From: a virus
Taxonomy: Duplodnaviria; Heunggongvirae; Uroviricota; Caudoviricetes
Strand: one strand, 5' to 3'
IMG/VR virus record: IMGVR_UViG_3300029725_000197
DNA: 64,000 nucleotides
A program made the translations under genes and the position numbers. This document shows, one piece after another, positions 5,416 to 34,753 of the stretch; positions within the stretch are counted from its first letter, which is position 1, and the number at the start of each line of letters is the position of its first letter. The notes below the pieces were generated by a model that searched no databases, was not told the DNA's origin, and saw nothing but the letters and a program-made list of their open reading frames with translations.

Positions 5416-5452
5416 CCTTCTTAACTGTACATCGGTTTTTTGCTATACTTTA
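5416..5452 (+). promoter_or_regulatory. sigma70-type promoter with extended -10 (TGcTATACT)
   Basis: 'TTAACT…17 nt…TGCTATACT' upstream of the MazF-like gene. Confidence 0.35.
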
Positions 5453-5478
5453 AACTAGGAAAATAGGAAAACAAAGGC

Positions 5479-5525
5479 ATAAAGATACTGGAAAGCATCC
5501 GGTGTTTTTATGCCTTTTTACATTT
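5479..5525 (+). terminator. hairpin plus T-run (GGCATAAA…TTTATGCC TTTTTACATTT)
   Basis: 8-bp stem with a long loop followed by a T-rich tract. It closes the upstream operon before the MazF-like gene. Confidence 0.35.
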
Positions 5526-5589
5526 GCGGCCGCTATGAGGATTCCATCTTCAGCGGTCTTTTTGCTATCAAACTGGAGGTGAGATCCCA

Positions 5590-6153
5590 ATGGGGAGAAA
5601 GAAAAAGAATGCCCGGTCAGCAGCACATGGACGAAAGATCCACGTTAATAAATACATCAATCAGCGAGGAAAGACCAAGAAAAGGGCCGTAGCCTCCTGT
5701 CAGCCGGCACCTAATAGAGTGCTGCTTCAGGAGATGCCGCTTACCAGATGGCCGGTACCAAAGATACCGAAGCAGTATGAGATCTGGTTTGCAGAACTGG
5801 GGAATCATTATGGCACTTCGGTGCAGAGCGGAAACCGCCCGGTTCTGGTTATCAGCAACGATATGGCAAACCGCAATTCTCCGATCATCACGGTAATCCC
5901 GATGAGTTCCAAGCTGAAGAAGCTGGAGCTGCCGGTACACATTCTGGTCACCGGGAGAGACTGCGAAATGCTCCGGGATGAGGGACTGGAAGAATCCATT
6001 CTGCTGGTGGAGCAGATCACGACCATTGACAAGATGGTCCTGTGTAACCGGCTCTGCCGTGTGACCTCGGCCAAGAAAAAGCAGGAGATCGAAGCTGCTG
6101 TTAAAAAGCAGTTTGCGATGCAGGCTTGCATGGGAAGGGAGGCGCAGGCATGA
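5590..6153 (+). CDS. PemK/MazF-family endoribonuclease-like protein with ~50-aa basic N-terminal extension
   Basis: 'YEIWFAELGNHYGTSVQSGNRPVLVISNDMANRNSPIITVIPMSS' is the PemK/MazF core. RBS GGAGGTG 8 nt before ATG 5590. Its stop overlaps the primase start (ATGA). Confidence 0.65.
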   Translation: MGRKKKNARSAAHGRKIHVNKYINQRGKTKKRAVASCQPAPNRVLLQEMPLTRWPVPKIPKQYEIWFAELGNHYGTSVQSGNRPVLVISNDMANRNSPIITVIPMSSKLKKLELPVHILVTGRDCEMLRDEGLEESILLVEQITTIDKMVLCNRLCRVTSAKKKQEIEAAVKKQFAMQACMGREAQA

Positions 6154-11219: not shown

Positions 11220-12491
11220 ATGAAAGCGACTGCTGAACTGAAGATGCTGCCGGTGTCCGTACTCAAGCCGGCTGCATACAATCCCCGGAAAAAGCTGAAG
11301 CCGGGGGATAAAGAGTACGAGAAAATCAAGAACTCCATTACGGAGTTCGGCTTCGCAGATCCTTTGGTGGTCAATGCCGACATGACGATTATCGGTGGTC
11401 ACCAGAGACTGACAGTAGCGATGGAGCTGGGCTACACCGAAGTGCCTTGCGCGGTGGTGGACATCGACAAGACCAGGGAGAAGGCCCTGAACATCGCACT
11501 CAACAAGATCACGGGTGCATGGGATGATTCCCTGCTGGCTAATCTTTTGAAGGATATTGAGGATTCCAACTTCGATCTTGGAAAGACCGGTTTTGAACCG
11601 CCGGAGATCGAGACGCTGTTCAACAAGGTACACAGCAAAGAAGTCAAGGAAGATGACTTCGATGTGGAATCGGAACTAAAACAGCCGTGCTTTTCCAAAG
11701 AGGGCGACCTCTGGCATCTGGGAAAGCACATCGTTCTGTGTGGTGATTCCACCAAAGCGGAATGCTACGACACCCTGATGGACGGCACCAAGGCAAATCT
11801 GGTACTTTCCGATCCCCCTTATAACGTGGATGTGGAAGAAACGGCTGGCAAGATCCTGAACGACAACATGGGCGATTCGGAATTCTACCAGTTCCTGCTG
11901 GCAGCATTCCAGCTGATGCACGGGCATCTGGCGGATGACGGCTCCATCTATATCTTCCATGCAGATACGGAAGGGCTGAACTTTAGAAAGGCATTCAAGG
12001 ATGCAGGGTTCTACCTGTCCGGGTGCTGTATCTGGAAGAAGAATGCTCTGGTGCTGGGACGCAGTCCTTACCAGTGGCAGCACGAGCCGTGTCTTTACGG
12101 CTGGAAGCAGAAGGGGAAACACCAGTGGTATTCCGACCGGAAGCAGACGACCATCTGGGAGTATGACCGGCCGAAGTCCAACAAGGACCATCCGACCATG
12201 AAGCCCATCGGCCTGATGAGCTATCCGATCCGAAATTCCACCATGACCAACGGCATCGTCCTCGATCCGTTCCTTGGCAGCGGTTCTACCCTGATCGCCT
12301 GCGAAGAAACCGACCGTGTGTGCCGAGGCATCGAGCTGGACCCGAAGTTCGTGGATGTGATCGTGAAGCGTTATATCGAACACAGCGAGGGTCACTACGA
12401 TGATGTGTATGTCATCCGTGACAGTCAGAAGCTGAAGTTCGAGGAAGTGGCGACCTTCGAGCCGGAAAGGGAGGTCGCTGATGGAGAATAA
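11220..12491 (+). CDS. ParB-like nuclease domain fused to N6-adenine/N4-cytosine DNA methyltransferase
   Basis: RBS AGGAGGA before ATG 11220. N-terminal ParB/Srx fold ('ADPLVVNADMTIIGGHQR'), 'SDPPY' motif IV, and C-terminal 'DPFLGSGST' SAM-binding motif. Confidence 0.85.
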   Translation: MKATAELKMLPVSVLKPAAYNPRKKLKPGDKEYEKIKNSITEFGFADPLVVNADMTIIGGHQRLTVAMELGYTEVPCAVVDIDKTREKALNIALNKITGAWDDSLLANLLKDIEDSNFDLGKTGFEPPEIETLFNKVHSKEVKEDDFDVESELKQPCFSKEGDLWHLGKHIVLCGDSTKAECYDTLMDGTKANLVLSDPPYNVDVEETAGKILNDNMGDSEFYQFLLAAFQLMHGHLADDGSIYIFHADTEGLNFRKAFKDAGFYLSGCCIWKKNALVLGRSPYQWQHEPCLYGWKQKGKHQWYSDRKQTTIWEYDRPKSNKDHPTMKPIGLMSYPIRNSTMTNGIVLDPFLGSGSTLIACEETDRVCRGIELDPKFVDVIVKRYIEHSEGHYDDVYVIRDSQKLKFEEVATFEPEREVADGE

Positions 12492-14610
12492 ACAGCTGAC
12501 CCTCGGCAGCCTCTTTGATGGCTCCGGGGGTTTTCCATTGGGCGGGCTTTTGACCGGGCAGATCACTCCGGTGTGGAGCAGTGAGATCGAGCCGTTTGCC
12601 ATCCGAGTCACGACCAAGCGTCTGCCGCAGGTGAAGCATTATGGAGATGTGTCTGCTATCAGCGGTGCAGACCTACCTCCTGTAGACATCATCACTTTTG
12701 GCAGTCCCTGTCAGGATATGTCCATCGCGGGTAAGCGGGACGGTCTGGATGGTTCACGGTCCAGCCTGTTTTACGAAGCAATCCGAATCGTGAAGGAAAT
12801 GAGGTGTAAGACCAATGGAGAAAAACCAAGATTTATCGTGTGGGAGAATGTGCCAGGGGCCTTCTCCTCAAACAAAGGACAGGACTTCAAAGCAGTCCTC
12901 GAAGCCGTCATCGGTGTTAAAGAACCGGCCGCCTCGGTGCCTGCGCCTGAGAAGAAAGGATGGTCCGACGCTGATTACTACGTGGGAGACGGATGGAGCG
13001 TCGCGTATCGAGTTTTTGATGCACAATGGTGGGGCGTTCCCCAAAGAAGAAAACGTATCTATCTTGTCGCAGATTTTGCAGACCAGAGTGCCCCAAAGAT
13101 ATTATTTGAGTCCGAAGGCGTGTCTCGGTATTCTGCGGAGGGCTTCCGTGCGTGGCAAAGAGCTGCCGCCGGTGCTGAAAGCGGCGCTGGAGAGACAGGC
13201 TGCAGTGGAGCAGGAGGACGGCTCTGTCTGAACGATCAGGGCGGAGAGAGGATGGATGTGACGGAGGAGGTGACAGCCACCCTCCGTGCGGAGGCACATC
13301 ATCCGCCGTGTGTTATGGAAGCCGCTGGTTTCTGTACCGAGCATTCCGCAAATGCCAGAAGCATTGGATACGAAGAGGAACGGTCACCGACCCTCCGGGC
13401 TGGTGTCGTGCCGGCCGCCATCGCACTGGAAAATCATCCTGCGGACAGCCGGGTGAAGATTTCCGAGGACGGTAAGGTACAGACACTGACAAGCCGGTGT
13501 GGTACGGGTGGCGGTAATGTCCCGATGGTCATGGACGCTGTTGAAAATTCAGTGGAAAGCCCGGTGAAAGAAGTTGAAAACTCTCCGGCGGTCACATTGA
13601 AGATCCGTTCCGGGTGTGAAGGCGGTGGCAAGGGCGCTATCTGGCAGGAAGAAAAGTCAGCTACCCTCGGCTGCAACAACGACCAGACACTGTTCGTTCC
13701 GAAATGCTACGGTGTCTGCTCTAAAGCCAGCCACTCCATGATGTCCGATAATCCGCATAGCGGCTTCTATGAAGCGGAGACCTCCCGGACACTAGACCGC
13801 AGTGGTGGAGATCCGACCTGCAATCAGGGTGGTATCTGCGTGGTAGAGCCGGTCGCCTTTACCCAGAACCAGAGGGATGAAGTCCGAGATCTTGGAGAAA
13901 AGTCAGCGGCACTTGCAGCAGAGCCGGGGATGAAGCAGCAGACCTTCGTCCTGCAGGGCAACATGATCGGCCGCAAGGATGAGAACGGTCCGAAAGGGGA
14001 TGGCGTCAATGAGGATGTCTGCTTCACCTTGGACGCGACAGACCGCCATGCAGTCTGCGCACCGGAGGATGTGTATGCCATGACCACCGGCTCCTATATG
14101 CAGGTGGCAAAAGAGGTCGCACCGACTCTGATGGCACGGGACTACAAAGACCCGACCACCATCGCACCGGTGCCGCATCTGAACGAGGGTGTCATGGGAA
14201 CGGTGGCAACCGGGGCGCATCCAAGCGGCTTCAACGGGCAGGATGCTTTCAATGACCGTCTGGTCATCGATAACCCGGAAGCGCAGCCGATACCTGTGAC
14301 CTATACCGTCCGCCGCTTGACACCGACCGAGTGTGCTAGACTGCAGGGCTTCCCGGACTGGTGGTGCCGGAACCTTGGAACAGAAGATCCGACCGAAGAA
14401 GAGCTGGCGTTCTGGGCAGATGTGTTTGAAACGCACCGCAAGATCGTGACCCACGCCAAGAAGCCGAAAACGGAGAAACAGATCCGGAAATGGCTGGCTG
14501 ACCCGTATACGGATTCGGCAGAGTACCGTATCTGGGGCAACGGCATATGCCTGGCCAACGCATTTTTTGTTCTGGCAGGCATCGCATGGTGTGCAGGTCT
14601 GGAAGAATAA
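12481..14610 (+). CDS. DNA (cytosine-5)-methyltransferase, unusually large (709 aa; multi-TRD candidate)
   Basis: Motifs FDGSGG (I), GSPCQDMS (IV), ENVPG (VI), QWWGVPQRRKRIY (VIII) and a C-terminal 'RLTPTECARLQGFPDWW…GNG' (IX/X). About 400 aa of variable region lie between VIII and IX. Confidence 0.85.
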   Translation: MENKQLTLGSLFDGSGGFPLGGLLTGQITPVWSSEIEPFAIRVTTKRLPQVKHYGDVSAISGADLPPVDIITFGSPCQDMSIAGKRDGLDGSRSSLFYEAIRIVKEMRCKTNGEKPRFIVWENVPGAFSSNKGQDFKAVLEAVIGVKEPAASVPAPEKKGWSDADYYVGDGWSVAYRVFDAQWWGVPQRRKRIYLVADFADQSAPKILFESEGVSRYSAEGFRAWQRAAAGAESGAGETGCSGAGGRLCLNDQGGERMDVTEEVTATLRAEAHHPPCVMEAAGFCTEHSANARSIGYEEERSPTLRAGVVPAAIALENHPADSRVKISEDGKVQTLTSRCGTGGGNVPMVMDAVENSVESPVKEVENSPAVTLKIRSGCEGGGKGAIWQEEKSATLGCNNDQTLFVPKCYGVCSKASHSMMSDNPHSGFYEAETSRTLDRSGGDPTCNQGGICVVEPVAFTQNQRDEVRDLGEKSAALAAEPGMKQQTFVLQGNMIGRKDENGPKGDGVNEDVCFTLDATDRHAVCAPEDVYAMTTGSYMQVAKEVAPTLMARDYKDPTTIAPVPHLNEGVMGTVATGAHPSGFNGQDAFNDRLVIDNPEAQPIPVTYTVRRLTPTECARLQGFPDWWCRNLGTEDPTEEELAFWADVFETHRKIVTHAKKPKTEKQIRKWLADPYTDSAEYRIWGNGICLANAFFVLAGIAWCAGLEE

Positions 14611-14742: not shown

Positions 14743-14800
14743 TTGCTATTTGACCGGTTCAGAGTGATATATGTGCTACCGAAAAGAACATCGGGATGCA
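14743..14800 (+). promoter_or_regulatory. promoter cassette copy P8 (TTGCTA-17-…ATAT…accgaaaag leader)
   Basis: Diverged copy of the repeated cassette, upstream of 14835. Confidence 0.4.
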
Positions 14801-14834
14801 CAAAAACAGAAGAAAACGAAAGGGGCAATGAATT

Positions 14835-15911
14835 ATGTTGAAATTTGAATTGAACATAGCCGACCGTAAGACACTTGCAAATCGCATGGAGGAGCTGACG
14901 GGCATCCATCCTTACTACACCAGAGCACCGCTGTATGCTTATGACATCGGCAACTACACCATCGACCGGGACGGTAATCTTCTGGTAGAGCCGGAAAATG
15001 CAGATGCCGAGCTGCTGACGACCCTGCTGAATGAGGGGTTGATCCGCGGCGGCGAGAGCATTGAGAGCACGGATGACCAGCCGGAGGACGCAGAGCCGAC
15101 CGAGAATTTGGCAGATGAGTCTGTGGCCGAAGAGGAGCCGGATGGTGCAACAGAGGATGAGCCAGATGCAGAGGAATCGGAAAGCGAAGAGCAGCCGGAA
15201 GCAGAAGAGCAGCCGGAGGAAGTTCCGCTGGATCTGGAACTTGCTTTTCCCACCAGCCAGCATAACGGCGTGAGCCTTCGCAATCTGGTCAACCTCATCT
15301 ACAGCCGGGGCCGACTCATCAGCAAGGCAACGGGCGGGCACTTTCATGTGGAAACTGACCTGGTCGAAACACTGCGGGATGACAGTTGCACCTACACGGT
15401 GGCAAACTTCATCGAGGCGCTTAAAAGTTACGAAGCACAGTGCGGAACTGCGATGGAAGGTCTGGTGATCACAGAAGAAAAGGTTTCCTCCACAGGATTC
15501 CCGACGGCTTCCGACTATGATCATCTGACGGCTTTCGGTCACCTTGCCATTCTGATGAACCAGCAGGCGATCAGCCAGAAGCGCATCCAGGCAAAGGATG
15601 TCAACGATGAGAATGAGAAGTATGCACTCCGCACATGGCTCCTGCGGCTTGGGATGAACGGTCCGGATTTCAAAGAGACCCGCAAGATCCTCATGGAGAA
15701 TCTTTCCGGCCATGCGGCTTTCCGGACGGATGAGGAAGCACAGAAGTTCCTTGCAAGGGAAAAGGCAAAACGGGATGCCCTGAAAGCCGCGAAACAGGCG
15801 GCACAGAACAGCAATCCTGCCACTGGGGAAACGGCCGCACAGGATGCAGCCCAGCCGACACAGCCCGACTGTGGGGCGAATACGGCGCAGATGCTGGAGG
15901 CGGGAGCGTAA
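14835..15911 (+). CDS. diverged amidoligase (Amidoligase_2/GS-like) paralog with ~70-aa poly-acidic insert
   Basis: Aligns by eye to 16144-17082: 'FELNIADRKTLANRMEELTG'~'VEIEMNNITREKAARKVAEYFG', 'NLVNLIY'~'NLVNIMA', 'GGHFHVE'~'GCGVHIHIG'. Shares the C-terminal motif KYA[LM]R.W[LM]LRLG…AA[FW]R. Large D/E-rich insert at aa 75-135. Confidence 0.55.
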   Translation: MLKFELNIADRKTLANRMEELTGIHPYYTRAPLYAYDIGNYTIDRDGNLLVEPENADAELLTTLLNEGLIRGGESIESTDDQPEDAEPTENLADESVAEEEPDGATEDEPDAEESESEEQPEAEEQPEEVPLDLELAFPTSQHNGVSLRNLVNLIYSRGRLISKATGGHFHVETDLVETLRDDSCTYTVANFIEALKSYEAQCGTAMEGLVITEEKVSSTGFPTASDYDHLTAFGHLAILMNQQAISQKRIQAKDVNDENEKYALRTWLLRLGMNGPDFKETRKILMENLSGHAAFRTDEEAQKFLAREKAKRDALKAAKQAAQNSNPATGETAAQDAAQPTQPDCGANTAQMLEAGA

Positions 15912-16067
15912 GCTCCCAAGCCCCCAATGGGGGCCGGAAAATAAGTGAGACCCTCTTCAATTGTACCGATATTAACTCTGAAAATGTACATTATCAAGCA
16001 GATAAACCGCAGAAATGTACACGATCATTCTGCCTCATATTTGTCGAATATATGTTCTTTTATATCC

Positions 16068-16130
16068 TTGCTATTATCCGCACCTGACGGTAATATGCAC
16101 ATACCGAAAGGGAAAACAAGGAAAAAACAA
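16068..16130 (+). promoter_or_regulatory. promoter cassette copy P7 (TTGCTA-17-TAATAT gcacataccgaaaggg)
   Basis: -35/-10 elements with 17-nt spacing and the conserved leader, upstream of the amidoligase gene. Confidence 0.5.
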
Positions 16131-16143
16131 AGGAGAACATACC

Positions 16144-17082
16144 ATGAACGATAAAACAAGAGAGCAGATTGAAGCCATGAAAAACCAGACCATCGGAGTT
16201 GAGATCGAGATGAACAACATCACCAGAGAAAAAGCGGCAAGAAAGGTTGCCGAGTACTTCGGAACCAGAGCATGGAACGCCGCCAGCGAGTACGGATATT
16301 ACAGCTGGGCTTGCAAGGATGGACAGGGCAGGGTTTGGAAATTCCAGAGGGATGTGAGCATCTACGGACCGGACGCAGAAAAATGCGAACTGGTCACCCC
16401 GATCCTCACCTACGACGACATCGAATCCCTGCAGGAAATCATCCGGCTGCTCCGCAAGGCAGGCGCAAAGAGCAGTCCAAGCCGCGGATGCGGGGTCCAC
16501 ATCCACATCGGCAAAGGCGACCACACCGCAAAGACCATCCGCAACCTTGTGAACATCATGGCGGCACACGAACAGCAGATCGGCAGAGCCATCCGGATCG
16601 ACGCAGGGCGTACCGGACAATATTGCCGGGTAGTCGAGCACCGCTTCCTCGACCGGCTGAACCGCGAGAAGCCGACCACCATGCGCAAGCTGGAAGACAT
16701 CTGGTACGAAGGCAACGGTTCCAGCTGGGAAAACCGGAATGCCCACTACAATTCAAGCCGGTACCATATGCTGAACCTCCATGCCACCTTTACAAAAGGA
16801 ACCATTGAATTCCGCCTTTTCCAATTCGCAGACCCAGCGGACGGAAAGCGTAACGGACTGCATGCCGGTGAGATGAAAGCCTACATCCAGCTTTGCCTCG
16901 CAATGAGCCAGCTTGCCAAGATGGTCAGAACGGCAAGCCCGAAGCCTCAGCAGACCGACAACGACAAATACGCAATGCGGTGCTGGATGCTCCGGCTGGG
17001 ATTCATTGGTGAGGAGTTCGCAACGGCAAGGGAAATCCTTCTGCGGAATATGGAGGGCAACGCAGCATGGCGCAACAAATAA
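16144..17082 (+). CDS. putative amidoligase (carboxylate-amine ligase, Pfam Amidoligase_2-like)
   Basis: 'IGVEIEMN', 'GCGVHIHIG' and 'GTIEFRLFQ' motifs typical of the phage amidoligase family. 312 aa. Confidence 0.65.
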   Translation: MNDKTREQIEAMKNQTIGVEIEMNNITREKAARKVAEYFGTRAWNAASEYGYYSWACKDGQGRVWKFQRDVSIYGPDAEKCELVTPILTYDDIESLQEIIRLLRKAGAKSSPSRGCGVHIHIGKGDHTAKTIRNLVNIMAAHEQQIGRAIRIDAGRTGQYCRVVEHRFLDRLNREKPTTMRKLEDIWYEGNGSSWENRNAHYNSSRYHMLNLHATFTKGTIEFRLFQFADPADGKRNGLHAGEMKAYIQLCLAMSQLAKMVRTASPKPQQTDNDKYAMRCWMLRLGFIGEEFATAREILLRNMEGNAAWRNK

Positions 17083-17150
17083 GCGCCAGCTGTACGGGCA
17101 CCTTTTGGGCGGGCAACCGCCCTTGAGGTGGTAGAAGGAGGTGCAGGTTT

Positions 17151-17387
17151 ATGAAAAGCACGTTAAAAAATGAAAGCACACCGGGCGGCAGGACCTTTAA
17201 GGTGACCATCACCGAGACCTACCAGAGAACGGTGACCATTTATGAATCCGAAATGAAAGAGCCGACCGTGCAGGAAGCCCAGCGAGTGGCAGAGGACTGG
17301 TGGCAGGACAGCCAGATTGAGCTTGGGACAGATGATTTCCAGGGCGTGGAATTCACTGGCAGGGAGGACGGTGAGGCGGATGTTTGA
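17151..17387 (+). CDS. small acidic hypothetical protein
   Basis: RBS GAAGGAGGTG before ATG 17151. 78 aa, between the amidoligase and GGCT genes. Confidence 0.5.
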   Translation: MKSTLKNESTPGGRTFKVTITETYQRTVTIYESEMKEPTVQEAQRVAEDWWQDSQIELGTDDFQGVEFTGREDGEADV

Positions 17388-17901
17388 ATTGATCAGCCGA
17401 AGCCCATCCAGATATTATCTTGCCTACGGAAGCAACCTCGACATGGAGCGGATGGGAAAGAGATGCCCCTATGCTGTGGTGGTCGGCACGACCGAGATCA
17501 AGGGCTACCGGCTTCTGTTCAAAAAGAGCAAGACCGGCTGCTATGCCACCATTGAGCAGGACGCCAATGAAAGCGTACCGGCAGTGGTCTGGAAGCTCTC
17601 GGAATATGATGAGCTCCTGCTGGACCGGTACGAGGGCTGCCCAAGATACTACTACAAGAAACAGTTTCAGCTTCCGGTCTGGAACCTGAACGGGAACCGC
17701 ATGAAAAAGGCAAAGCCCTGCATCGCTTATGTGATGCACGAGGACCGGCGGCTTGGCTGCCCGGATGCCGAGTATTTTGAACTGCTGCGCGGCGGATACA
17801 GCGACTGGGAATTTCCGCTGGACACACTGAAGCGTGGACTGGCAGCTAGTATCGGAAGGGCGGAAGCCATCCGGTATCTGAAGAAGCAGCAGATGATGTA
17901 A
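17380..17901 (+). CDS. gamma-glutamyl cyclotransferase-like (AIG2/GGCT fold) protein 1
   Basis: 'YYLAYGSNL' N-terminal motif and 'VVW…YEG.P..Y' pattern. ATG 17380 overlaps the upstream stop. Confidence 0.65.
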   Translation: MFELISRSPSRYYLAYGSNLDMERMGKRCPYAVVVGTTEIKGYRLLFKKSKTGCYATIEQDANESVPAVVWKLSEYDELLLDRYEGCPRYYYKKQFQLPVWNLNGNRMKKAKPCIAYVMHEDRRLGCPDAEYFELLRGGYSDWEFPLDTLKRGLAASIGRAEAIRYLKKQQMM

Positions 17902-18031
17902 GAGTACACGATCAAAAGCAAAAAACATTGTGCAGTATATGATGCTCATCGGCCTTGATAAATCAGGGCAGAAGAGTGATATATACCATACCGCCAGACA
18001 AGAGCGGAGAAAACCGAAGGGAGAGATTCAA

Positions 18032-18511
18032 ATGAAGAACAAGAAATATTACATCGCCTACGGCAGCAACCTGTCGGTGGAGCAGATGGCATACCGGTGT
18101 CCGGATGCAAAAATTGCAGGGCAGGCGGTGCTGGCAGGCTGGGAGCTTTTGTTCCGGGGCTGCGCCACCATCGCACCGAACCCGAAGAAGAACACGCCGG
18201 TTCTGGTGTGGGAGATTTCGGAAAGGGACGAAGGAAACCTCGACCTCTATGAGGGCTACCCGAATTACTACCGCAAGGAAGACCTGAACATCGAACTGCT
18301 CCGGGAAGGGGCAGAACCGGAGATGGTGACCGCAATGGTATATATCATGGAGAACGACTTCGGACGCCGCGCACCGAGCCGGTATTACTACAAAGTTCTG
18401 CATGACGGCTATAAGGCATTCCGCTTCCCGATGCACATCCTCGAAGGTGCGCTGAAGGAATGCATGGATAAGGATGCCGCCCAGCGGATGATCGAGGAGG
18501 TGCAGGCATGA
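18032..18511 (+). CDS. gamma-glutamyl cyclotransferase-like (AIG2/GGCT fold) protein 2
   Basis: 'YYIAYGSNL…LVWEISE…LDLYEGYPNYY' is paralogous to 17380-17901. Confidence 0.65.
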   Translation: MKNKKYYIAYGSNLSVEQMAYRCPDAKIAGQAVLAGWELLFRGCATIAPNPKKNTPVLVWEISERDEGNLDLYEGYPNYYRKEDLNIELLREGAEPEMVTAMVYIMENDFGRRAPSRYYYKVLHDGYKAFRFPMHILEGALKECMDKDAAQRMIEEVQA

Positions 18512-18975
18512 ATTTCGCAGATCAGAAAATGGTCAGGAAGTTGAGAAAAGAGTTCCCGGTCGGATGCCGGATCGTCCTCGATGAGATGGATGACAAGCAG
18601 GCACCGCCCATCGGAACGCAGGGAACCTGCAACGGGGTCGATGATGCCGGAAACATCTTGGTGAGCTGGGACACCGGAAGCCATCTGAACGTTGCCTACG
18701 GCGCGGACAGTTGCCACCGTGTGGCTTCGGAAGCCGAGGTCAAGGTGTCGCTCGACCGCCTTGGTAAAACGCGACAGACCGGCCCACGTTGCCCCAGGTG
18801 CGGAGCAAAGCCTGACTGTTACGACCATCAGCAGCAGGCACTCAGCCGAAGGGCGGACATCCAGATCTGCAACCGCTGCGGAACGGAGGAAGCATTAGAG
18901 GACATTGCATGGGGCGGACAGCAGAAGATGCATCTTGCAGACTGGGCAATCGTGAAAGGAGGCTGGGTCGAATGA
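18508..18975 (+). CDS. DUF4314-like domain + C-terminal zinc-ribbon protein
   Basis: 'VGCRIVLDEMDDKQAPPIGTQGTCNGVDDAGNILVSWDTGSHL' resembles DUF4314 (from memory). C-terminal CPRCG…CNRCG. Confidence 0.4.
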   Translation: MNFADQKMVRKLRKEFPVGCRIVLDEMDDKQAPPIGTQGTCNGVDDAGNILVSWDTGSHLNVAYGADSCHRVASEAEVKVSLDRLGKTRQTGPRCPRCGAKPDCYDHQQQALSRRADIQICNRCGTEEALEDIAWGGQQKMHLADWAIVKGGWVE

Positions 18976-19343
18976 AGGTTCTTCTGATCAAACCGATGGA
19001 GCATCCGCAGGTGGTGGACATTGAAAACTCCCTGAAAGAGTTCTACCGCATCCTCGACTGCGACTGCATCACAGCCACCTACCCGTGGGAAGAACGCGCC
19101 GTCCTGGTCACCGATGACAACGGGCTGTTCACCGAGAAGTCATTCAGCAGATACGTTCCGGAGCTGGAGCAGCCCATCAAGGGAAACTTCTTCATCTGCG
19201 GATTGGGCGAGGAAGATTTCGCAGAGCTGCCCCAGGACCTCATCCAGAAATTCAGGGAACGCTTCTGGGTGCCGGAGGCATTCGTCAGCATGTTCGGGCA
19301 GATGGCAGTCATCCAGATGGATGACGGAACGAAGCCGGAATAA
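18972..19343 (+). CDS. DUF3846-like protein
   Basis: 'MKVLLIKPMEHPQVVDIENSLKEFYRIL…NFFICGLGEEDFAEL' fits the DUF3846 pattern (from memory). Start overlaps the upstream stop. Confidence 0.45.
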   Translation: MKVLLIKPMEHPQVVDIENSLKEFYRILDCDCITATYPWEERAVLVTDDNGLFTEKSFSRYVPELEQPIKGNFFICGLGEEDFAELPQDLIQKFRERFWVPEAFVSMFGQMAVIQMDDGTKPE

Positions 19344-19414
19344 GATACCACAATCAGAAAAATACCCTCTCGGCCAGAAAAGACCGGGAGGGCTTGGTTT
19401 AACAGGAGGAGCCT

Positions 19415-19606: not shown

Positions 19607-19805
19607 ACGGAAAATGGGGGCCTCAAAAGAATGAGAACCCCCTTCCAGTTTACTGTATATTACCTCTGGAAAGCAACGATAGCAAGAAGAACCGCCGCCA
19701 TAATGTACACAAACATCTGGCAGCGGTTTTGTGTATCATACCAAATCAAAACGGGGGATACGAGGCAGAACCCCAGCTTCTGCTGGGGGAGCCTTTTGGG
19801 ATTCC

Positions 19806-20057
19806 TTAGAAGAAATCCCTCATGCTCATGCCGACCTCGTTCAGTCGTTCTTCCATGCTGTGGTAGTGCCAATCTTCTTCCTCTTCTTCGTCCTCTTCCT
19901 CAAGCTCTTCTGGGAAGGGGTCGTGCCGCCATCCGGCTTTCTGGTATTCTTCTTCCCGGATGTCGTTGCGGTCGTAAATGTCCAGCTCGTATTCTTCTTC
20001 AAGCTCTGCGATGCGGTTTTCGATTGCGGTTTCAACTTCTGTAATGGTCTTTTTCAT
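19806..20057 (-). CDS. small acidic protein (E-rich) on the minus strand
   Basis: On the reverse strand, RBS GGAGG before ATG (20057). 'EELEEEDEEEEEDWHYH'. Driven by the divergent cassette copy P9. Confidence 0.5.
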   Translation of the reverse strand: MKKTITEVETAIENRIAELEEEYELDIYDRNDIREEEYQKAGWRHDPFPEELEEEDEEEEEDWHYHSMEERLNEVGMSMRDFF

Positions 20058-20206: not shown

Positions 20207-20255
20207 TTGCTATCACAGGGCGGTGACGGTAATATACAGCTACAAAAAGCAAAGG
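20207..20255 (+). promoter_or_regulatory. promoter cassette copy P1 (TTGCTA-17-TAATAT acagctac)
   Basis: 'ggccTTGCTAtcacagggcggtgacggTAATATacag'. Confidence 0.5.
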
Positions 20256-20266
20256 AGGACAGCAAA

Positions 20267-20443
20267 ATGGCTGATTGGAGAACATGGAAAAAAGGGAGAA
20301 AGACAACATGGCACTGGAACGAATTCGATGGAAGCGGAAGCCGGGAAGGAATCATCACCGAGGTTCATGAAGACCATGCGATTATGGAAGCAGACGGCAT
20401 GCACCTTTGGATCGACGATGACACGGCAGAGATGTTCAGCTAA
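20267..20443 (+). CDS. small acidic hypothetical protein (58 aa)
   Basis: RBS AAGGAGG before ATG 20267. Confidence 0.45.
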   Translation: MADWRTWKKGRKTTWHWNEFDGSGSREGIITEVHEDHAIMEADGMHLWIDDDTAEMFS

Positions 20444-20523
20444 GAAAACGGGGAGGGAAACCTCCCCGGATAAACACATAAATCCTCCAGATCAGGGGGC
20501 AGATGATCGTGTACTTTAGCCGC

Positions 20524-20575
20524 TTGATAGTATCCGGCAGTGACGGTAATATACAGCTACCAAAACGAAAGGGGC
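20524..20575 (+). promoter_or_regulatory. promoter cassette copy P2 (TTGATA-17-TAATAT)
   Basis: 'gccgcTTGATAgtatccggcagtgacggTAATATacagctaccaaaacgaaaggggcaaag'. Confidence 0.55.
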
Positions 20576-20582
20576 AAAGAAC

Positions 20583-20789
20583 ATGGAACGCTACACTTAT
20601 GAGATCACCTTTACACGGCTGGATGGACAGCAGGATGAAATCCAGCAGCACACCAGCGAGGAGCTGGCAAGAGAATGCTTCCGGCTTTTCGATGAGCCGG
20701 ACAGCGCAGAGATGTACAGCAAAATTGAACTTAGCCGCCATGACTGGGAGACAGGCATGGATGAGATTCTGGAAACGATGACATTTTGA
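20583..20789 (+). CDS. small acidic hypothetical protein (68 aa)
   Basis: ATG directly after the conserved leader. Confidence 0.45.
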   Translation: MERYTYEITFTRLDGQQDEIQQHTSEELARECFRLFDEPDSAEMYSKIELSRHDWETGMDEILETMTF

Positions 20790-20804
20790 GAGGAGAACAA
20801 AAAC

Positions 20805-21065
20805 ATGACCTACACAAAAATCAACCTTTATCTTGCAAACGGAATTCCAGAGGCACTCAGCAACCTCTGGTACGGAAGCGACAGTGCGGTGGTCGAGATC
20901 AGGGATGCCGTTGAGGATGCGAAGAACGGCAAGGACCTTCTGAACCGTATCCAGAAGATGAAGCTCCTTCGGAAATTCACCCTCGACAGGGAGAACGACA
21001 AGCGCATCCGCTTCAAGGGAACGGACTGCTGGGGCAACGTAAGCTACCTCGAAATCATCCGCTAA
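20805..21065 (+). CDS. hypothetical protein (86 aa)
   Basis: RBS GAGGAG before ATG 20805. Co-transcribed with 20583. Confidence 0.45.
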   Translation: MTYTKINLYLANGIPEALSNLWYGSDSAVVEIRDAVEDAKNGKDLLNRIQKMKLLRKFTLDRENDKRIRFKGTDCWGNVSYLEIIR

Positions 21066-21084
21066 AGGCAAGACCGACAGGCGC

Positions 21085-21116
21085 AAGGGGCTGGAAATGA
21101 CCAGCCTTTTGCTCGT
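21085..21116 (+). terminator. terminator (GGCTGG aaatga CCAGCC TTTTGCTCG)
   Basis: Perfect 6-bp stem plus T-run. Confidence 0.5.
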
Positions 21117-21193
21117 GTCTGTCTTCCGAAAGCTGGCATGAAAAGCACATAAATATGACAATTACAGGATTGAATGATCGTGTAGTTTAGCCG

Positions 21194-21245
21194 CTTGATA
21201 GTGTTTCGAGGTGACGGTAATATACAGTCACCGAAAGGGGAAAAC
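21194..21245 (+). promoter_or_regulatory. promoter cassette copy P3 (TTGATA-17-TAATAT inside GGTGAC…GTCACC palindrome)
   Basis: 'gccgcTTGATAgtgtttcgagGTGACggTAATATacaGTCACCgaaagggg'. Confidence 0.6.
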
Positions 21246-21267
21246 AACAAAAACGGAGGATACGACA

Positions 21268-21738
21268 ATGACGAAGAACGAAGACCGCATCAATAAACTT
21301 TTCAAGGAACTGGTACCGGATACGGGCAAGGCAGACAGCCTCGCAGGGGAGCTGGTAAGGGCAATGAGCCGCATCGGATACTGCTTTTACAACGACGGCG
21401 ACCAGCTGGGCATCGGCTACGGCAGGGAAACCTGCAACCCTGCAGGGCGGTTCCTTGGAGCCAAGGGCAACGACAAAATCGCAAAGCTGACTGCAGATGC
21501 CTGGGCAGTCTACAGTGAGGAAGCCTACGAAAAGGTTCTGGACATCCTTTGCGGAGCGGTTGCCGACTATGTTGAGCAGAACCCAGACCTTAGAAACCAG
21601 CCGACCGAAGATATGTGGGACTTCAAGGATGAGGAAGAAGACCAGGATGACAGCTGGGATGAAGAGGAAGATGACTGGGGCGAAGAGGAAGATGACTGGG
21701 GCGAAGAGGAAGATTACGAGGACGAAGAAGACTACTAA
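21268..21738 (+). CDS. hypothetical protein with poly-acidic D/E-W repeat tail (…DEEEDQDDSWDEEEDDWGEEEDDWGEEEDYEDEEDY)
   Basis: RBS 'aaacggagga' before ATG 21268. 157 aa. Confidence 0.55.
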   Translation: MTKNEDRINKLFKELVPDTGKADSLAGELVRAMSRIGYCFYNDGDQLGIGYGRETCNPAGRFLGAKGNDKIAKLTADAWAVYSEEAYEKVLDILCGAVADYVEQNPDLRNQPTEDMWDFKDEEEDQDDSWDEEEDDWGEEEDDWGEEEDYEDEEDY

Positions 21739-21751
21739 GCCAGAGAAACAC

Positions 21752-21786
21752 ATGGGGCTTGCCGGTAACGGCAGCCCTTTTCTTCT
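21752..21786 (+). terminator. terminator (GGGCTTGCCG gtaa CGGCAGCCC TTTTCTTCT)
   Basis: Stem-loop plus T-run. Confidence 0.45.
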
Positions 21787-21835
21787 GCTGTAATACGCAC
21801 AGTTCCGGGCGGCTATCTTTGTGTAGTATAGCCGC

Positions 21836-21890
21836 TTGATAGTGTGTGACATAGACGGTAATATGCACATACCGAAACGGAAAACCAAGA
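21836..21890 (+). promoter_or_regulatory. promoter cassette copy P4 (TTGATA-17-TAATAT gcacataccgaaacgg)
   Basis: Conserved -35, spacing, -10 and leader. Confidence 0.55.
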
Positions 21891-21908
21891 AAAACGGAGG
21901 AAACCACC

Positions 21909-22100
21909 ATGAAGAAGAACATCACCAAGGAAGAGGGAAAAGCCCTGCTGGAGATCGCCAAGCGCCTGATGGTAGCGGTAGACAGCCGGGGAGATCTCGA
22001 AGCCCGCGACAATGACAGCGAAGATTTCATTGAGGTTCCGGTCTGGGGCATCCAGAAAGCAATGGAGGAAGCCTACCTGCTGGGACGGATGAACAGATAA
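21909..22100 (+). CDS. small acidic hypothetical protein (63 aa)
   Basis: RBS 'aacggagga' before ATG 21909. Confidence 0.45.
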   Translation: MKKNITKEEGKALLEIAKRLMVAVDSRGDLEARDNDSEDFIEVPVWGIQKAMEEAYLLGRMNR

Positions 22101-22229
22101 ACCGACAGCCCCCCGACACAGCCCCACACAGGGGCTTGTGCCACGGGTGGCAAAACGATCCGAATGAAGCGACAACGCCCCACACAGGGGAAGATGTGGC
22201 GGCGTGGATGCCCCAGGAAGGAAAAGCAC

Positions 22230-22445
22230 ATGGAAGAACGGATGATGGATACCATCGTGGAAATCTACAACCATATGGATGACAGCGATAAGGATGCCTT
22301 CACACTGGAGGATGCCGAGGATATGGTGGAAGACCAGATCAGGATGGACAAGGAAGCTGGACGGGAACCGCTGGCATATGACCCGCAGTTCTTCTACGAT
22401 ACCATTGTAGACCTCATGGAGCAGGATGCCGAAGATGCAGAGTAA
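22230..22445 (+). CDS. small acidic hypothetical protein (71 aa)
   Basis: RBS 'aggaaggaaaag' before ATG 22230. No cassette of its own. Confidence 0.4.
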   Translation: MEERMMDTIVEIYNHMDDSDKDAFTLEDAEDMVEDQIRMDKEAGREPLAYDPQFFYDTIVDLMEQDAEDAE

Positions 22446-22494
22446 TGTACATTCTGCCCGGTATTCTGGGAAGATGATCGTGTAGTATAGCCGC

Positions 22495-22560
22495 TTGATA
22501 GTGTGCCGAAGTGACGGTAATATACAGTCACCGAAAGGGGCAAAGCCCAAGGAAAACAAA
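22495..22560 (+). promoter_or_regulatory. promoter cassette copy P5 (TTGATA-17-TAATAT, GTGAC…GTCAC palindrome)
   Basis: 'gccgcTTGATAgtgtgccgaaGTGACggTAATATacaGTCACcgaaaggggcaaag'. Confidence 0.6.
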
Positions 22561-22579
22561 ACACACGGAGGATACGAAC

Positions 22580-22864
22580 ATGAAAAAGAATTTGATCGAC
22601 TTTCCAGAAAACAACATCAGCATTGAGAGTTTCTACGACCGGCTCAGACCTTGCTACGACAGCATCATGCAGTTCGGTGACCGGGTTTTGGTTGCCCAGA
22701 TGAACTGGAACGGCATGCTGGAGGGAGCGGTATACGGATTTGTGGAAGACCCAGAGGAAGGCTGGTCACCGATTGAGTGCCGACTGGAGCTTCTGAAGAT
22801 TTCCGATGAGACCTACACGGATGCCGGTCACGCGATCGAGTGGTGCATCAAGAACGCACACTGA
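22580..22864 (+). CDS. hypothetical protein (94 aa)
   Basis: RBS 'cacggagga' before ATG 22580. Confidence 0.45.
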   Translation: MKKNLIDFPENNISIESFYDRLRPCYDSIMQFGDRVLVAQMNWNGMLEGAVYGFVEDPEEGWSPIECRLELLKISDETYTDAGHAIEWCIKNAH

Positions 22865-22869
22865 AAAAG

Positions 22870-22906
22870 GGCAGAGCTCCTTCGGGGGCTTTTGCTCGTA
22901 GTGGCG
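22870..22906 (+). terminator. terminator (AGCTCC ttcg GGGGCT TTTGCTCG), UUCG loop
   Basis: Stem-loop plus T-run. Same TTTTGCTCG tail as the hairpin at 21085. Confidence 0.5.
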
Positions 22907-22976
22907 GATTCTTCCAGTGTGGAAATACACATAAATCCGACAAAAAGAGGTGTGTATGATCGTGCAGCATAGCCGC

Positions 22977-23045
22977 TTGCTATGTCCGGGCAGTGACGGT
23001 AATATACAGTCACAACGAAGGGAAAAGCCCTACGGAAAACAAAAC
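22977..23045 (+). promoter_or_regulatory. promoter cassette copy P6 (TTGCTA-17-TAATAT, GTGAC…GTCAC)
   Basis: 'gccgcTTGCTAtgtccgggcaGTGACggTAATATacaGTCACaacgaagggaaaag'. Confidence 0.55.
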
Positions 23046-34641: not shown

Positions 34642-34753
34642 TCGGTAGCAACCCCGTTGGAGAAATCTGACGGGGTATTTTTATACCCATTTTTAGCCTG
34701 TCTGCCCCGTGCAGATGGGCTTTTTTCATGCCTGCAAGGAGGTGGTTACGCAA

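Follow-up and report, generated by a model that had tools for sequence, protein, structure and literature searches.

Phage and prophage gene neighbourhoods that combine an amidoligase of the Amidoligase_2 family with a gamma-glutamyl cyclotransferase (AIG2/GGCT) were reportedly predicted by Iyer, Abhiman, Burroughs and Aravind in 2009. Such neighbourhoods recur in genome annotations: a table for Tn6164 from 2012 gives, in the same order as here, a methylase, a 'virulence-related protein' (the type termed here A), an amidoligase, an AIG2/GGCT protein and a terminase (PMC3485107); 'Amidoligase x2 + GGCT' is listed for prophages of C. clostridioforme LM41 (PMC11318856); the two genes are annotated as neighbours in Arthrobacter cluster AL phages (PMC5513430); and one early-gene cluster of LUZ24-like phages holds COOH-NH2_lig, Amidoligase_2, GAT-II, ATP-grasp and AIG2/GGCT genes (PMC3890496). 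The pairing is real, very common and annotated in print since at least 2012, so that the block analysed here, which a preliminary description had proposed as a candidate undescribed system, is a real finding but not one that is new in kind. The same description held that no function has been defined experimentally, and this agrees with the searchable literature, in which neither such a function nor an experiment on the pairing was found.

The window (the whole stretch of 64,000 nucleotides analysed; IMG/VR record IMGVR_UViG_3300029725_000197) is a gut-bacterial prophage, temperate and Ca. Heliusvirales-like, from Lachnospiraceae, with Clostridium fessum closest. In phages of this type the block forms a conserved accessory region, preceded by methylase genes and followed by packaging genes; its placement, with DNA methylases upstream and the terminase downstream, is the same in dozens of relatives. 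Its features are as follows:

14743..14787, + strand: degenerate promoter cassette upstream of A (TTGCTA, 17 nt, GATATA, then a CTACCGAAAAG leader), from alignment with seven exact cassettes
14835..15911, + strand: A, predicted catalytically dead amidoligase paralog, 358 aa, of a family often annotated 'virulence-related protein'; profile homology to B
16068..16096, + strand: exact cassette TTGCTA-N12-GACGGTAATAT, 48 nt upstream of B; pattern search and alignment
16144..17082, + strand: B, Amidoligase_2 (GS/GCL-fold ATP-dependent carboxylate-amine ligase), 312 aa; PF12224, phrog_2443
17151..17387, + strand: DpnD/PcfM-like small acidic protein, 78 aa; PF14207 3.8e-7, 30.4 bits (cut-off 25); syntenic in relatives
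17380..17901, + strand: GGCT-1, gamma-glutamyl cyclotransferase fold, 173 aa from the ATG at 17380; PF06094 3.4e-9, phrog_2520 1.3e-36
18032..18511, + strand: GGCT-2, paralog of GGCT-1, 159 aa; PF06094 5.4e-12, PF13772 1.2e-6
18508..18975, + strand: DUF4314 protein with a C-terminal Cys-rich (CxxC ... CxxC) region; PF14192 2.7e-27
18972..19343, + strand: DUF3846 protein, 123 aa; PF12957 3e-23
19365..19392, + strand: stem-loop with a 9-bp stem, then CUUGGUUUAAC; possible terminator of the B-to-DUF3846 unit; RNA fold

The gene positions of the preliminary description, all on the + strand, and the phage-borne context were confirmed, as were, by Pfam profile scan, its family calls (Amidoligase_2, two GGCT/AIG2, DUF4314 and DUF3846). 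The 78-aa ORF, which had been placed between the two GGCT genes, exists but lies between B and GGCT-1. Genes for DNA modification surround the block: a SAM synthetase, a ParB-N6/N4 methylase and a 709-aa C5 methylase upstream and Nmad4, a 'nucleotide modification associated' gene, 3.2 kb downstream.

The assignment of B to the Amidoligase_2 ligases is well founded: it matches positions 1-244 of the 245 of PF12224 (E 3.1e-55; 188 bits against a cut-off of 22) and phrog_2443 'amidoligase enzyme' (1e-104), and its catalytic set is complete (E20, E22, E82, H119, H121, R206, N211, E222 and R224), these nine residues being invariant over 20 homologues whose identity falls as low as 22%. Judged by these residues, B is a complete enzyme of the glutamine-synthetase/glutamate-cysteine-ligase fold. 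It is basic (net charge +11) and has in common with A a C-terminal extension that is absent from Bacillus, Geobacillus and Arthrobacter amidoligases.

A had been described as a diverged paralog of B carrying an acidic insert, and both points stand. Scans of Pfam, NCBIfam and PADLOC gave no match to A; residues 2-309 match the same phrog_2443 region as B does (4.7e-37), BLASTP aligns A with B over a C-terminal stretch of 67 aa (39% identity, E 2e-13), and profile-profile alignment of the two families (hhalign) gives a probability of 99.7% and an E of 3.7e-27 over 242 columns. The protein consists of an N-lobe (1-71), an acidic insert (72-131; 28 D/E, no K/R, net -28) that is disordered in the AF2 model and variable within the family, a reduced GS-like core (its fold likewise from the AF2 model), the helical extension found also in B and an Ala/Lys/Glu-rich tail. 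Across 126 representatives of the A family, K/R/T stand at the positions of B's E20/E22, S/A and P at those of H119/H121 and T/S/D at those of E222/R224, and the equivalents of R206/N211 are deleted. Because the A family has lost all of the catalytic positions, A is predicted to be a pseudo-ligase, catalytically dead, rather than a second ligase; of the two explanations offered earlier for the duplication, two substrates or 'one active enzyme plus a regulator', it is the latter that fits. The 'HTxxSLRNLVN' helix is retained in A. The string 'GGHFHVE' in A was considered as the counterpart of B's GCGVHIHIG and rejected, since the profile alignment places the 'LAFP' strand of A there. No statement that A is a catalytically dead paralog was found in the accessible papers.

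GGCT-1 and GGCT-2 are 35% identical and both match phrog_2520. AYGSNL and LDxYEG are conserved in GGCT-1, and alignment of GGCT-2 with human GGCT (2pn7; E 3.5e-5) places YGSNL on YGSNL and E74 on the catalytic E98; with the YGSNL motif and the catalytic Glu intact, both look active. The small DpnD/PcfM protein ends in ...GEADV, and the ATG of GGCT-1 at 17380 overlaps its stop by 8 nt. Start/stop overlaps occur at 17380/17387, at 18508/18511 (DUF4314 with GGCT-2) and at 18972/18975 (DUF3846 with DUF4314); these overlaps, the single cassette before B and the stem-loop after 19343 make the layout operon-like. The cassette TTGMTA-N12-GACGGTAATAT occurs in seven exact + strand copies, against 0.12 expected by chance (pattern search), and the copy at 16068 is likely the start of a B-to-DUF3846 transcription unit, whose genes would be co-transcribed. 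Each amidoligase had been said to have its own cassette: the copy of B is exact, and that of A is recognisable but degenerate and was missed by a pattern search allowing three mismatches. The stem-loop is stable, with a folding energy of -20.3 kcal/mol (z -2.87), and was not called by a consensus terminator scan.

The B-to-DUF3846 unit is tentatively read, at a little short of an even chance, as a phage-borne short circuit of the gamma-glutamyl cycle, with A as a binding pseudo-ligase. The functional core would be the unit running from the cassette at 16068, that is, B followed by two intact cyclotransferases: B would phosphorylate the gamma-carboxylate of free L-glutamate and join it to an amine, X; the cyclotransferases would then split the resulting small amide, gamma-Glu-X, into X and 5-oxoproline. 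A, for its part, would act by binding, as an adaptor, decoy or regulator, and could work without B. The fold neighbours and the partner enzyme suggest that the acyl donor is glutamate and that X is small. The reaction of GGCT-fold enzymes is a cyclisation in which the alpha-amino group of the gamma-glutamyl residue must be free, a requirement that speaks for a small gamma-Glu-X, first made and later cleaved, and against a protein tag like Pup. With genes for forming and for breaking the same bond in a single operon, the result would be a futile cycle unless timing keeps ligase and lyase apart or some further step intervenes, and no such step is visible. In infection, the unit might mark or protect a small host amine for a time by gamma-glutamylation, or it might drain glutamate and ATP into 5-oxoproline. 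Counting against a small amide, the basic charge and C-terminal extension of B hint at a macromolecular partner rather than a metabolite. The DNA-modification genes around the block also weigh against the short circuit, as do the phages, named below, in which B has no detected GGCT neighbour.

Gene order in relatives bears on whether these genes form a system at all. They may instead be independent accessory genes (B, the GGCTs, A, DUF4314 and DUF3846) gathered in one permissive hotspot, in which case the GGCTs would have host gamma-glutamyl compounds as substrates and B an unrelated one. This is unlikely, even though the region is a mosaic in which lineages differ in their possession of A, DUF4314, PcfM, DUF3846 and the second GGCT, gene order changes (for example, MTase-B-GGCT-...-A in relative L087) and many single-gene cassettes with promoters of their own share the hotspot. 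A is indeed independent of B, occurring without it in Streptococcus Javan phages, Erysipelothrix phi1605, C. botulinum phage CWou-2020b and several Heliusvirales genomes; short DUF4314 genes adjoin A or B in distant relatives; and the second GGCT copy is confined to some lineages. The earlier treatment of the four genes as one system is therefore not upheld as an obligate association: many phages have A without B or GGCT, and others have B and GGCT without A. What remains constant is B with an adjoining cyclotransferase, A and the second cyclotransferase being optional. Of the 18 B clusters that could be assessed (formed at ~90% identity), 15 have a GGCT gene no more than 2.5 kb downstream of B; the gene adjoins B in Geobacillus phage GR1 and lies ~1.1 kb downstream in Bacillus phage 035JT001, and none was detected beside B in Faecalibacterium phage Taranis or a Christensenellales phage. 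The two genes thus adjoin from Lachnospiraceae phages to a Geobacillus phage, and adjoining Arthrobacter phage genes bear the same annotations (PMC5513430). Because this adjacency is kept where B identity has fallen to 22-26%, as in the Geobacillus and Arthrobacter phages, chance co-location is not an easy explanation.

Protein tagging, in which B would put glutamate or a peptide on host or phage lysines and the GGCTs would erase it, as PafA and Dop do for Pup, is improbable. A basic B with its extra C-terminal extension could dock a macromolecule, and GGACT-type enzymes do cleave epsilon-(gamma-glutamyl)-lysine; their substrate, however, is the free isodipeptide and not proteins. Moreover, GGCT/GGACT chemistry needs a free alpha-amine on the glutamyl residue, so that only single-glutamate adducts could be erased. 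The analogy drawn earlier with the Pup ligase/depupylase pair is therefore chemically weak, the alpha-amine of the C-terminal Glu of such a tag being locked in a peptide bond. Nor is membership in pupylation supported otherwise: there is no Pup-like small protein in the block, where the 78-aa ORF is DpnD/PcfM, and the eraser has a GGCT fold rather than the GS fold of Dop.

The chances of envelope modification are slim as well. B would here amidate or extend a peptidoglycan or teichoic-acid precursor while the GGCTs trim gamma-glutamyl stems, altering receptors (superinfection exclusion) or preparing lysis. Gamma-glutamyl bonds are plentiful in Gram-positive walls and peptidoglycan stem peptides contain gamma-linked D-Glu, but known GGCTs are specific for L-gamma-glutamyl groups. 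The cassette promoter could permit expression from the prophage, and the LM41 paper cites Iyer et al. 2009 for a similar prediction on the phiEco32 amidoligase (PMC11318856). Against this, the translations and domain scans reveal no signal peptide, membrane segment or wall-binding domain, and the block contains no Mur-ligase, amidase or transglycosylase partner.

A role for B in the phage's DNA-modification arsenal, attaching a group of amino-acid type to a base or nucleotide, is very improbable: the block does follow the SAM synthetase and methylase genes and precede Nmad4, and in viral contigs amidoligase/amidotransferase genes are found together with those for thymidine hypermodification (PMC8989533), but Pfam detects no 5-hmdU kinase, aGPT-Pplase, dUMP hydroxymethylase, TET/JBP or glycosyltransferase in the tested replication-region and cassette ORFs, the conserved partner is a gamma-glutamyl lyase without a known role on DNA, and Nmad4 has its own promoter and is unlinked to B in distant relatives.

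The proposed short circuit differs from the gamma-glutamyl cycle itself (gamma-glutamylcysteine synthetase/YbdK and human GGCT, C7orf24) in lacking glutathione synthetase and gamma-glutamyl transpeptidase; identity to the solved enzymes is 9-15%, and the C-terminal extension of B is absent from those of the cycle. A likeness in logic is found in butirosin biosynthesis, where an ATP-dependent ligase (BtrJ) protects an amine temporarily with a gamma-glutamyl group, which a GGCT-fold enzyme (BtrG) later removes as 5-oxoproline. BtrJ, however, is an ATP-grasp ligase, not GS-like as is B, and carrier-protein and acyl-transfer steps, of which none is visible here, separate the two reactions. The early cluster of the LUZ24-like Pseudomonas phages also unites Amidoligase_2 with AIG2/GGCT (PMC3890496), but these genes are not adjacent there, and in that proteobacterial cluster they are joined by a class II glutamine amidotransferase, an ATP-grasp enzyme and another ligase family, with no A-type pseudo-ligase. 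Closest are the neighbourhoods of Tn6164 module B, LM41 phi13alpha/epsilon, Arthrobacter AL and Geobacillus GR1, which have the same two families in adjacent genes on the same strand. In the Firmicutes prophages the pair lies, as here, between a ParB-type methylase and the terminase; Tn6164 has an A-type 'virulence-related protein' upstream, and the LM41 prophages have two amidoligase calls. Relative to these neighbourhoods, the present lineage has a tandem duplicate GGCT, with PcfM, DUF4314 and DUF3846 added to the unit.

Seven closely packed genes, all on the + strand, occupy 14.7-19.4 kb of the window:

14835-15911, +: A, the diverged amidoligase paralog with an acidic insert; 358 aa, matching phrog_2443 'amidoligase enzyme' over residues 2-309 (4.7e-37)
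16144-17082, +: B, the amidoligase; PF12224 Amidoligase_2 (E 3.1e-55) and phrog_2443 (1e-104)
17151-17387, +: PcfM, a 78-aa DpnD/PcfM protein; PF14207 (3.8e-7)
17380-17901, +: GGCT-1, of the gamma-glutamyl cyclotransferase (GGCT, AIG2/GGACT) fold; PF06094 (3.4e-9) and phrog_2520
18032-18511, +: GGCT-2, of the same fold; PF06094 (5.4e-12) and PF13772 (1.2e-6)
18508-18975, +: DUF4314 protein; domain match 2.7e-27, C-terminal half Cys-rich
18972-19343, +: DUF3846 protein; domain match 3e-23

The Pfam and PHROG matches bear out the motifs, coordinates and family assignments of the preliminary description, which had placed the 78-aa ORF wrongly between the two GGCT genes; it lies between B and the first of them. 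NCBIfam and PADLOC scans gave no match for any of the seven proteins.

B is a complete Amidoligase_2 protein and, judged from its residues, a predicted ATP-dependent ligase. It matches PF12224 with 188.1 bits (cut-off 22) over profile positions 1-244 of 245, and in an alignment of 20 homologues, reaching down to 22-26% identity in Bacillus, Geobacillus and Arthrobacter phages, residues G18, E20, E22, W65, D70, S72, E82, V84, P86, G117, H119, H121, C161, R206, N211, T220, E222, R224 and A258 are invariant. The catalytic set of the fold (E20, E22, E82, H119, H121, R206, N211, E222 and R224) is thus intact, and we take these invariant residues to be the ExE / E / HxH / R..N / ExR set of the glutamine-synthetase-like fold, with ExE on strand 1. 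An AF2 model (pLDDT 76, pTM 0.81, from a shallow alignment) has a predicted three-dimensional fold like that of glutamine synthetase and GCL (GS/GCL). Searched against solved structures, the B sequence gave no match at E 10, and a likeness of the B-family profile to AcrIF9 (E 0.075) was non-significant and was taken as noise. Two IMG/VR relatives have an interrupted B gene, L077 by about 3.4 kb (1289-2041 / 5431-5742) and L080 by about 3.9 kb (6935-7735 / 11666-11878), and a third, L059, has an extended, over-long tblastn match to B at 7001-8299; these three loci suggest mobile insertions in the amidoligase gene, such as an intron, a homing endonuclease gene or an IS element.

Both cyclotransferases likewise appear intact. 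GGCT-1 and GGCT-2, which are 35% identical to each other, score 37.7 and 46.8 bits against PF06094 (cut-off 22.8) and 1e-36 and 2e-41 against phrog_2520. Across 108 sequences the motifs AYGSNL and LDxYEG.P..Y.K are near-invariant, residues A9-Y10-G11-S12-N13-L14 and L70-D71-x-Y73-E74-G75 being kept in at least 100 of the 108 and in both window copies. Human gamma-glutamyl cyclotransferase (2pn7) aligns with GGCT-2 at E 3.5e-5; the substrate-binding YGSNL motifs of the two coincide, and E74 of GGCT-2 meets the catalytic E98, a number that follows our own count of the human sequence.

The case of A is different in kind. The preliminary description took it for a diverged paralog of B, and so it proves, by a homology that is visible solely through phrog_2443 and hhalign: A has no Pfam match at E 0.01, its fragments have none at E 10, a Pfam scan of the C-terminal module shared with B returned nothing usable, and profile-profile comparison of the two families gives 99.7% (E 3.7e-27). 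An active-site check of both paralogs found the full set in B (20 homologues) and found it not kept in the A family (126 representatives). Mapped from profile to profile, E20 and E22 of B correspond in the A family to K/R/T and K/E/R; the HxH strand 'VHIHI' corresponds to '[IVF]-[SA]-[FL]-P'; the segment of about 65 residues that carries R206 and N211 is deleted; and 'GTIEFRLFQ' corresponds to 'dkItFtGFP', in which E222 and R224 are gone, ExR being replaced by T/S/D. Conservation across the 126 representatives and a 50-sequence alignment falls instead on R11, K12, G23, Y28, P32, L64, P139, H143, N150, L151, F170, G209, F219, L237 and the C-terminal stretch N260-F296, none of which is a catalytic position. 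Hence A is a predicted pseudoenzyme, and belongs to a family of its own: among 1.84 billion representative proteins, 2,323 clusters match at E<1e-3, and 221 do so at E<1e-30. A further large protein search with an A-family profile was saturated with near-identical sequences and added little diversity. Pairing of 'KATGGHFHVE' in A with 'RGCGVHIHIG' in B, by BLASTP or by eye, is contradicted by the profile-profile alignment, in which A 'LAFP...HNGVSLRNLVN' falls on B 'VHIHI...HTAKTIRNLVN'; the 'GGHFHVE' of A is a false HxH lookalike, because H169 and H171 are unconserved in the family and align elsewhere.

A and B have in common a helix, 'HTxxSLRNLVN', and a C-terminal extension of about 50 residues, NEKYAxRxWLxRLGxxGxE[FY]KxxRxxLxxxLxGxxAFR, which is not part of PF12224 and has no counterpart in the amidoligases of the Bacillus, Geobacillus and Arthrobacter phages. 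Mean pLDDT is 85.8 in the AF2 model of A, with ten-residue block means of 93-98 in folded regions and residues 72-131 disordered; its matches in BFVD are weak. The acidic insert sits in the loop ahead of the former HxH strand and, in the window copy, contains 28 D/E and no K/R (net -28). Across the family this linker runs from 6 to 188 residues (median 62) and is on average 34% acidic, a figure that is biased because the 121 representatives were chosen by similarity to an acidic query. A most likely works by binding, in phages that also have B as that protein's regulator or adaptor and in others as an independent effector; one may speculate that a conserved surface rich in Arg/Lys, together with the acidic tether, would fit a decoy or an autoinhibited binder. 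Two explanations had been offered for the duplication, two substrates or an active enzyme plus a regulator, and the second is the better, the catalytic set being whole in B and lost in A.

The repeated promoter cassette, TTGMTA-N12-GACGGTAATAT, occurs in seven exact + strand copies, against 0.12 expected by chance. Each amidoligase had been said to have its own copy; this holds for B, which has an exact one at 16068-16096, 48 nt upstream, while the copy upstream of A (14743-14787) is degenerate, if recognisable. B to DUF3846 would form a single transcription unit, with A transcribed apart, because gene junctions overlap (17380/17387, 18508/18511 and 18972/18975), the next cassette downstream of B occurs only at 20207, and a stable stem-loop lies 3' of DUF3846 (19365-19392, -20.3 kcal/mol, z -2.87 by RNA folding). 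A terminator between A and B is unsupported, since the hairpin at 15920-15934 is no more stable than shuffled sequences (z -1.19).

The remaining six exact cassettes (20207, 20524, 21195, 21836, 22495 and 22977, all +, within 20207-23009) each head one or two small, mostly acidic ORFs just ahead of the terminase genes. Five of the six sit in a longer unit of about 89 nt (20468-20556 and copies), which adds 'GTGTAGTATAGCCGCTTGATAG' upstream and a purine-rich leader, likewise conserved; a phage regulator may have its operator in the conserved upstream part. One ORF of this region, at 21268-21738 (+), encodes a 156-aa protein without a Pfam match; the protein's C-terminal end is an acidic repeat punctuated by tryptophans (DSWDEEEDDWGEEEDDWGEEEDYEDEEDY), which a 21-nt tandem repeat at 21644-21727 specifies. 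The region's sole convincing minus-strand gene, at 19806-20057 (-), codes for a highly acidic 83-aa protein (EELEEEDEEEEEDW) and is placed after the B-to-DUF3846 unit, ahead of the first cassette downstream; a minus-strand cassette-like site with three mismatches is found at 19657-19685.

Which of these genes belong together was assessed by phmmer and jackhmmer searches with the window proteins across 79 IMG/VR loci and GenBank phages. The order ParB-MTase / C5-MTase / A / B / PcfM / GGCT / GGCT / DUF4314 / DUF3846 is found in most loci in which B is at least 85% identical to the window copy, and is only loosely kept where B is about 72-74% identical. When B was clustered at about 90% identity, giving 20 clusters of which 18 were assessable, 15 of the 18 had a GGCT gene at most 2.5 kb downstream of B, as two copies in four clusters and one copy in eleven; an annotated GGCT gene also adjoins B in Geobacillus phage GR1 and lies about 1.1 kb downstream of it in Bacillus phage 035JT001. 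A is directly upstream of B in about ten clusters, elsewhere in L086 and L087, and missing from several B clusters (L063-L066, L068 and L075). Conversely, A occurs without B or GGCT in the same slot, from ParB-methylase to terminase, in Streptococcus phage Javan630, C. botulinum phage CWou-2020b and Erysipelothrix phi1605, and in some ten Heliusvirales genomes, in which the gene goes by the label 'virulence-related protein'. Therefore B with a single GGCT makes up the robust unit, set in a mosaic hotspot from which its neighbours A, the second GGCT, PcfM, DUF4314 and DUF3846 can be separated. In most distant relatives a short DUF4314 gene (70-107 aa) adjoins A and/or B, the loci being L082 (Streptococcus phage Javan630, 3470-4448), L001, L002, L071, L072 and L063-L066, and the arrangements A-DUF4314 without B, A-DUF4314-B-GGCT and DUF4314-B-GGCT; this gene may be tied to the block no less closely than GGCT is.

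The window itself is a temperate tailed phage. A helicase, primase, SAM synthetase, HNH protein, ParB_N-N6/N4 methylase and 709-aa C5 methylase precede the block, and the array of small cassette-driven genes, TerS/TerL, portal, major head protein and large serine recombinases follow it. Its nearest annotated relatives are the genomes named 'NatCom_' and 'IMGVR' that were deposited as Ca. Heliusvirales: compared with the TerL of NatCom_11578 and NatCom_991, that of the window scores 749-776 bits, and ParB-MTase, C5-MTase, A, B and GGCT are syntenic with the deposited genomes. By TerL and gene order the window would thus fit Ca. Heliusvirales, of which the nine-marker definition is fuller (PMC11283538); the order comprises gut prophages reported as widespread in the human gut, and the block genes are not discussed there (PMC11283538). 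The nearest copy of A in a bacterial genome is that of Clostridium fessum SNUG30386 (96% identity), followed at 70-77% by copies in Blautia faecis, Wujia chipingensis, Faecalibacterium intestinale and Lawsonibacter. B is nearly missing from plasmids (seven records, none mobilisable), so that the block was rightly called phage-borne and the conjugative-element reading, prompted by PcfM, DUF4314 and DUF3846, is rejected; the window has terminase, portal, capsid and serine recombinase genes. The 90%-identity cluster that holds near-identical relatives of B counts 3,767 member sequences, and a single A cluster counts 1,700, the block being very common in human-gut metagenomes and having a fixed place in Ca. 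Heliusvirales-type genomes.

Several other genes of the window were noted. A small ORF with a nucleotide modification associated domain 4 (Nmad4; PF18756, 3e-20) lies at 22580-22864 (+), 3.2 kb beyond the block, and is preceded by a cassette promoter of its own; nothing relevant to Nmad4 was found among the literature matches listed. Together with SAM synthetase and two methylases it suggests heavy investment by the phage in DNA modification. In the C5 cytosine methylase (12481-14610, +; 709 aa) a long insert splits the methylase profile into three stretches, and its relatives span 428-823 aa, so the insert is variable. A PemK/MazF-type toxin domain (5590-6153, +; PF02452, 1.7e-20), for which no antitoxin was identified, lies in the replication module, flanked by small ORFs and by the gene for the primase. 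The 1,984-aa ORF at 34709-40663 is by position a candidate tape-measure gene. Large serine recombinase genes (phrog_95 'integrase') lie at 53298-55505 and 60395-62269 (+); a 735-aa ORF at 55502-57709 (+) abuts the first and equals it in length, and an ATPase or DnaB-like gene (59401-60381) lies between this ORF and the second.

The preliminary description put the cluster forward as a candidate undescribed system, a label that published annotations do not support. The amidoligase-Aig2 neighbourhood in Firmicutes was reportedly noted already by Iyer et al. 2009 and in the Pfam entry, and the arrangement has since been tabulated repeatedly. Tn6164 of C. difficile, in 2012, was listed with a SAM synthetase, an N4/N6 methylase, a 'hypothetical/virulence-related protein', a putative amidoligase, an AIG2/GGCT-like protein and a terminase (PMC3485107); C. 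clostridioforme LM41 prophages have 'amidoligase' ORFs 35 and 37 with GGCT ORF 39, and likewise ORFs 206, 208 and 210 (PMC11318856); Arthrobacter cluster AL phages have AIG2-like gene 97 and amidoligase gene 98 (PMC5513430); LUZ24-like phages have Amidoligase_2, GAT-II, ATP-grasp and AIG2 in a single early-gene cluster (PMC3890496); and in a Planctomycetes phage genes of the amidoligase/GGCT type were labelled nitrogen-metabolism AMGs (PMC10945688). All five reports cite or echo Iyer et al. 2009. The block is, in other words, a correctly annotated instance of a known, computationally predicted module and not a new kind of system. The searchable 'amidoligase' literature, recent or earlier, reports no substrate or phenotype for a PF12224 protein; the Klebsiella 'amidoligase' CfmP is an ATP-grasp enzyme and irrelevant here. 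Two points were not found stated in the literature: that the upstream 'amidoligase' or 'virulence-related protein' belongs to an independently distributed, putatively dead paralog family, and that the GGCT duplication is lineage-specific.

The chemistry of the two folds constrains what the B-GGCT pair might do. Ligases of the GS/GCL fold phosphorylate a carboxylate and transfer it to an amine and, to our knowledge, all characterised relatives act on the gamma-carboxyl(amide) of glutamate. In enzymes of the GGCT fold the glutamyl's own free alpha-amino group attacks the gamma-glutamyl amide, releasing 5-oxoproline and the amine; therefore the cleaved adduct is a single glutamate with a free alpha-amine. 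This leaves, as substrate class, gamma-Glu-X, a single glutamate joined through its gamma-carboxylate to an amine X, which would be small or, at the most, the side chain of a lysine. B would join free glutamate to X and the GGCTs would turn the product over to 5-oxoproline and X, a reading to which we give slightly less than an even chance. The gamma-glutamyl group might then serve as a transient mark or protecting group, as in butirosin biosynthesis, where BtrJ/BtrG handle a transient gamma-glutamyl protecting group; or glutamate and ATP might be drained into 5-oxoproline, a futile cycle known from glutathione-synthetase deficiency. One weakness of the gamma-Glu-X reading is that a ligase and a lyase for one bond make a futile cycle, and the step that would separate them is not visible. 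Another is that the basic charge of B and the docking-like extension that it has in common with A hint at a macromolecular partner.

Other readings fare worse. That the genes are unrelated morons gathered in one hotspot would suit the separable genes around the pair, and would suit poorly the recurrence of GGCT downstream of B; it is improbable. Protein tagging is a shade less probable again. Modification of the envelope is about as doubtful as tagging. Nucleic-acid modification, for all the DNA-modification genes of this phage, is very unlikely.

Phages of Firmicutes, of Actinobacteria and of Proteobacteria repeatedly carry ligase and cyclotransferase as a pair. It is a long shot that in the phages of these three phyla the pair is a conserved device for host takeover or counter-defence. 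Driven by ATP, it would gamma-glutamylate a specific host amine (a metabolite of signalling or defence, a polyamine, a protein lysine or an N-terminus), and the cyclotransferase would drive the turnover; A-family proteins would form a new class of pseudo-ligases acting, through the acidic insert and the docking surface present in both A and B, as decoys or inhibitors of a host defence or DNA-binding protein. The substrate of B, once found, would give a function to a large phage gene family now called 'auxiliary metabolic' by default. Experiments are narrowed by two constraints, that A is a predicted pseudoenzyme able to act alone and that the adduct would be one glutamate with a free alpha-amine; these make a module very abundant in the gut virome directly testable.

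The preliminary description had likened the ligase and its cleaving partner to the Pup ligase and depupylase, a comparison that fails at several points. A Pup-type tag is excluded because the alpha-amine of its C-terminal Glu sits in a peptide bond and the GGCT reaction needs that amine free. No ORF for a Pup-like tag (small, disordered, with C-terminal GGQ/GGE) occurs in 14.7-19.6 kb, where the only small ORFs are DpnD/PcfM, which ends GEADV, and a 63-aa basic ORF. Nor is there a deconjugase of the Dop type: the partners of B have the GGCT fold, and the sole GS-like paralog, A, is without catalytic residues. The Pup system combines a small tag ending in GGQ/GGE with the GS-fold Dop, and the block has neither.
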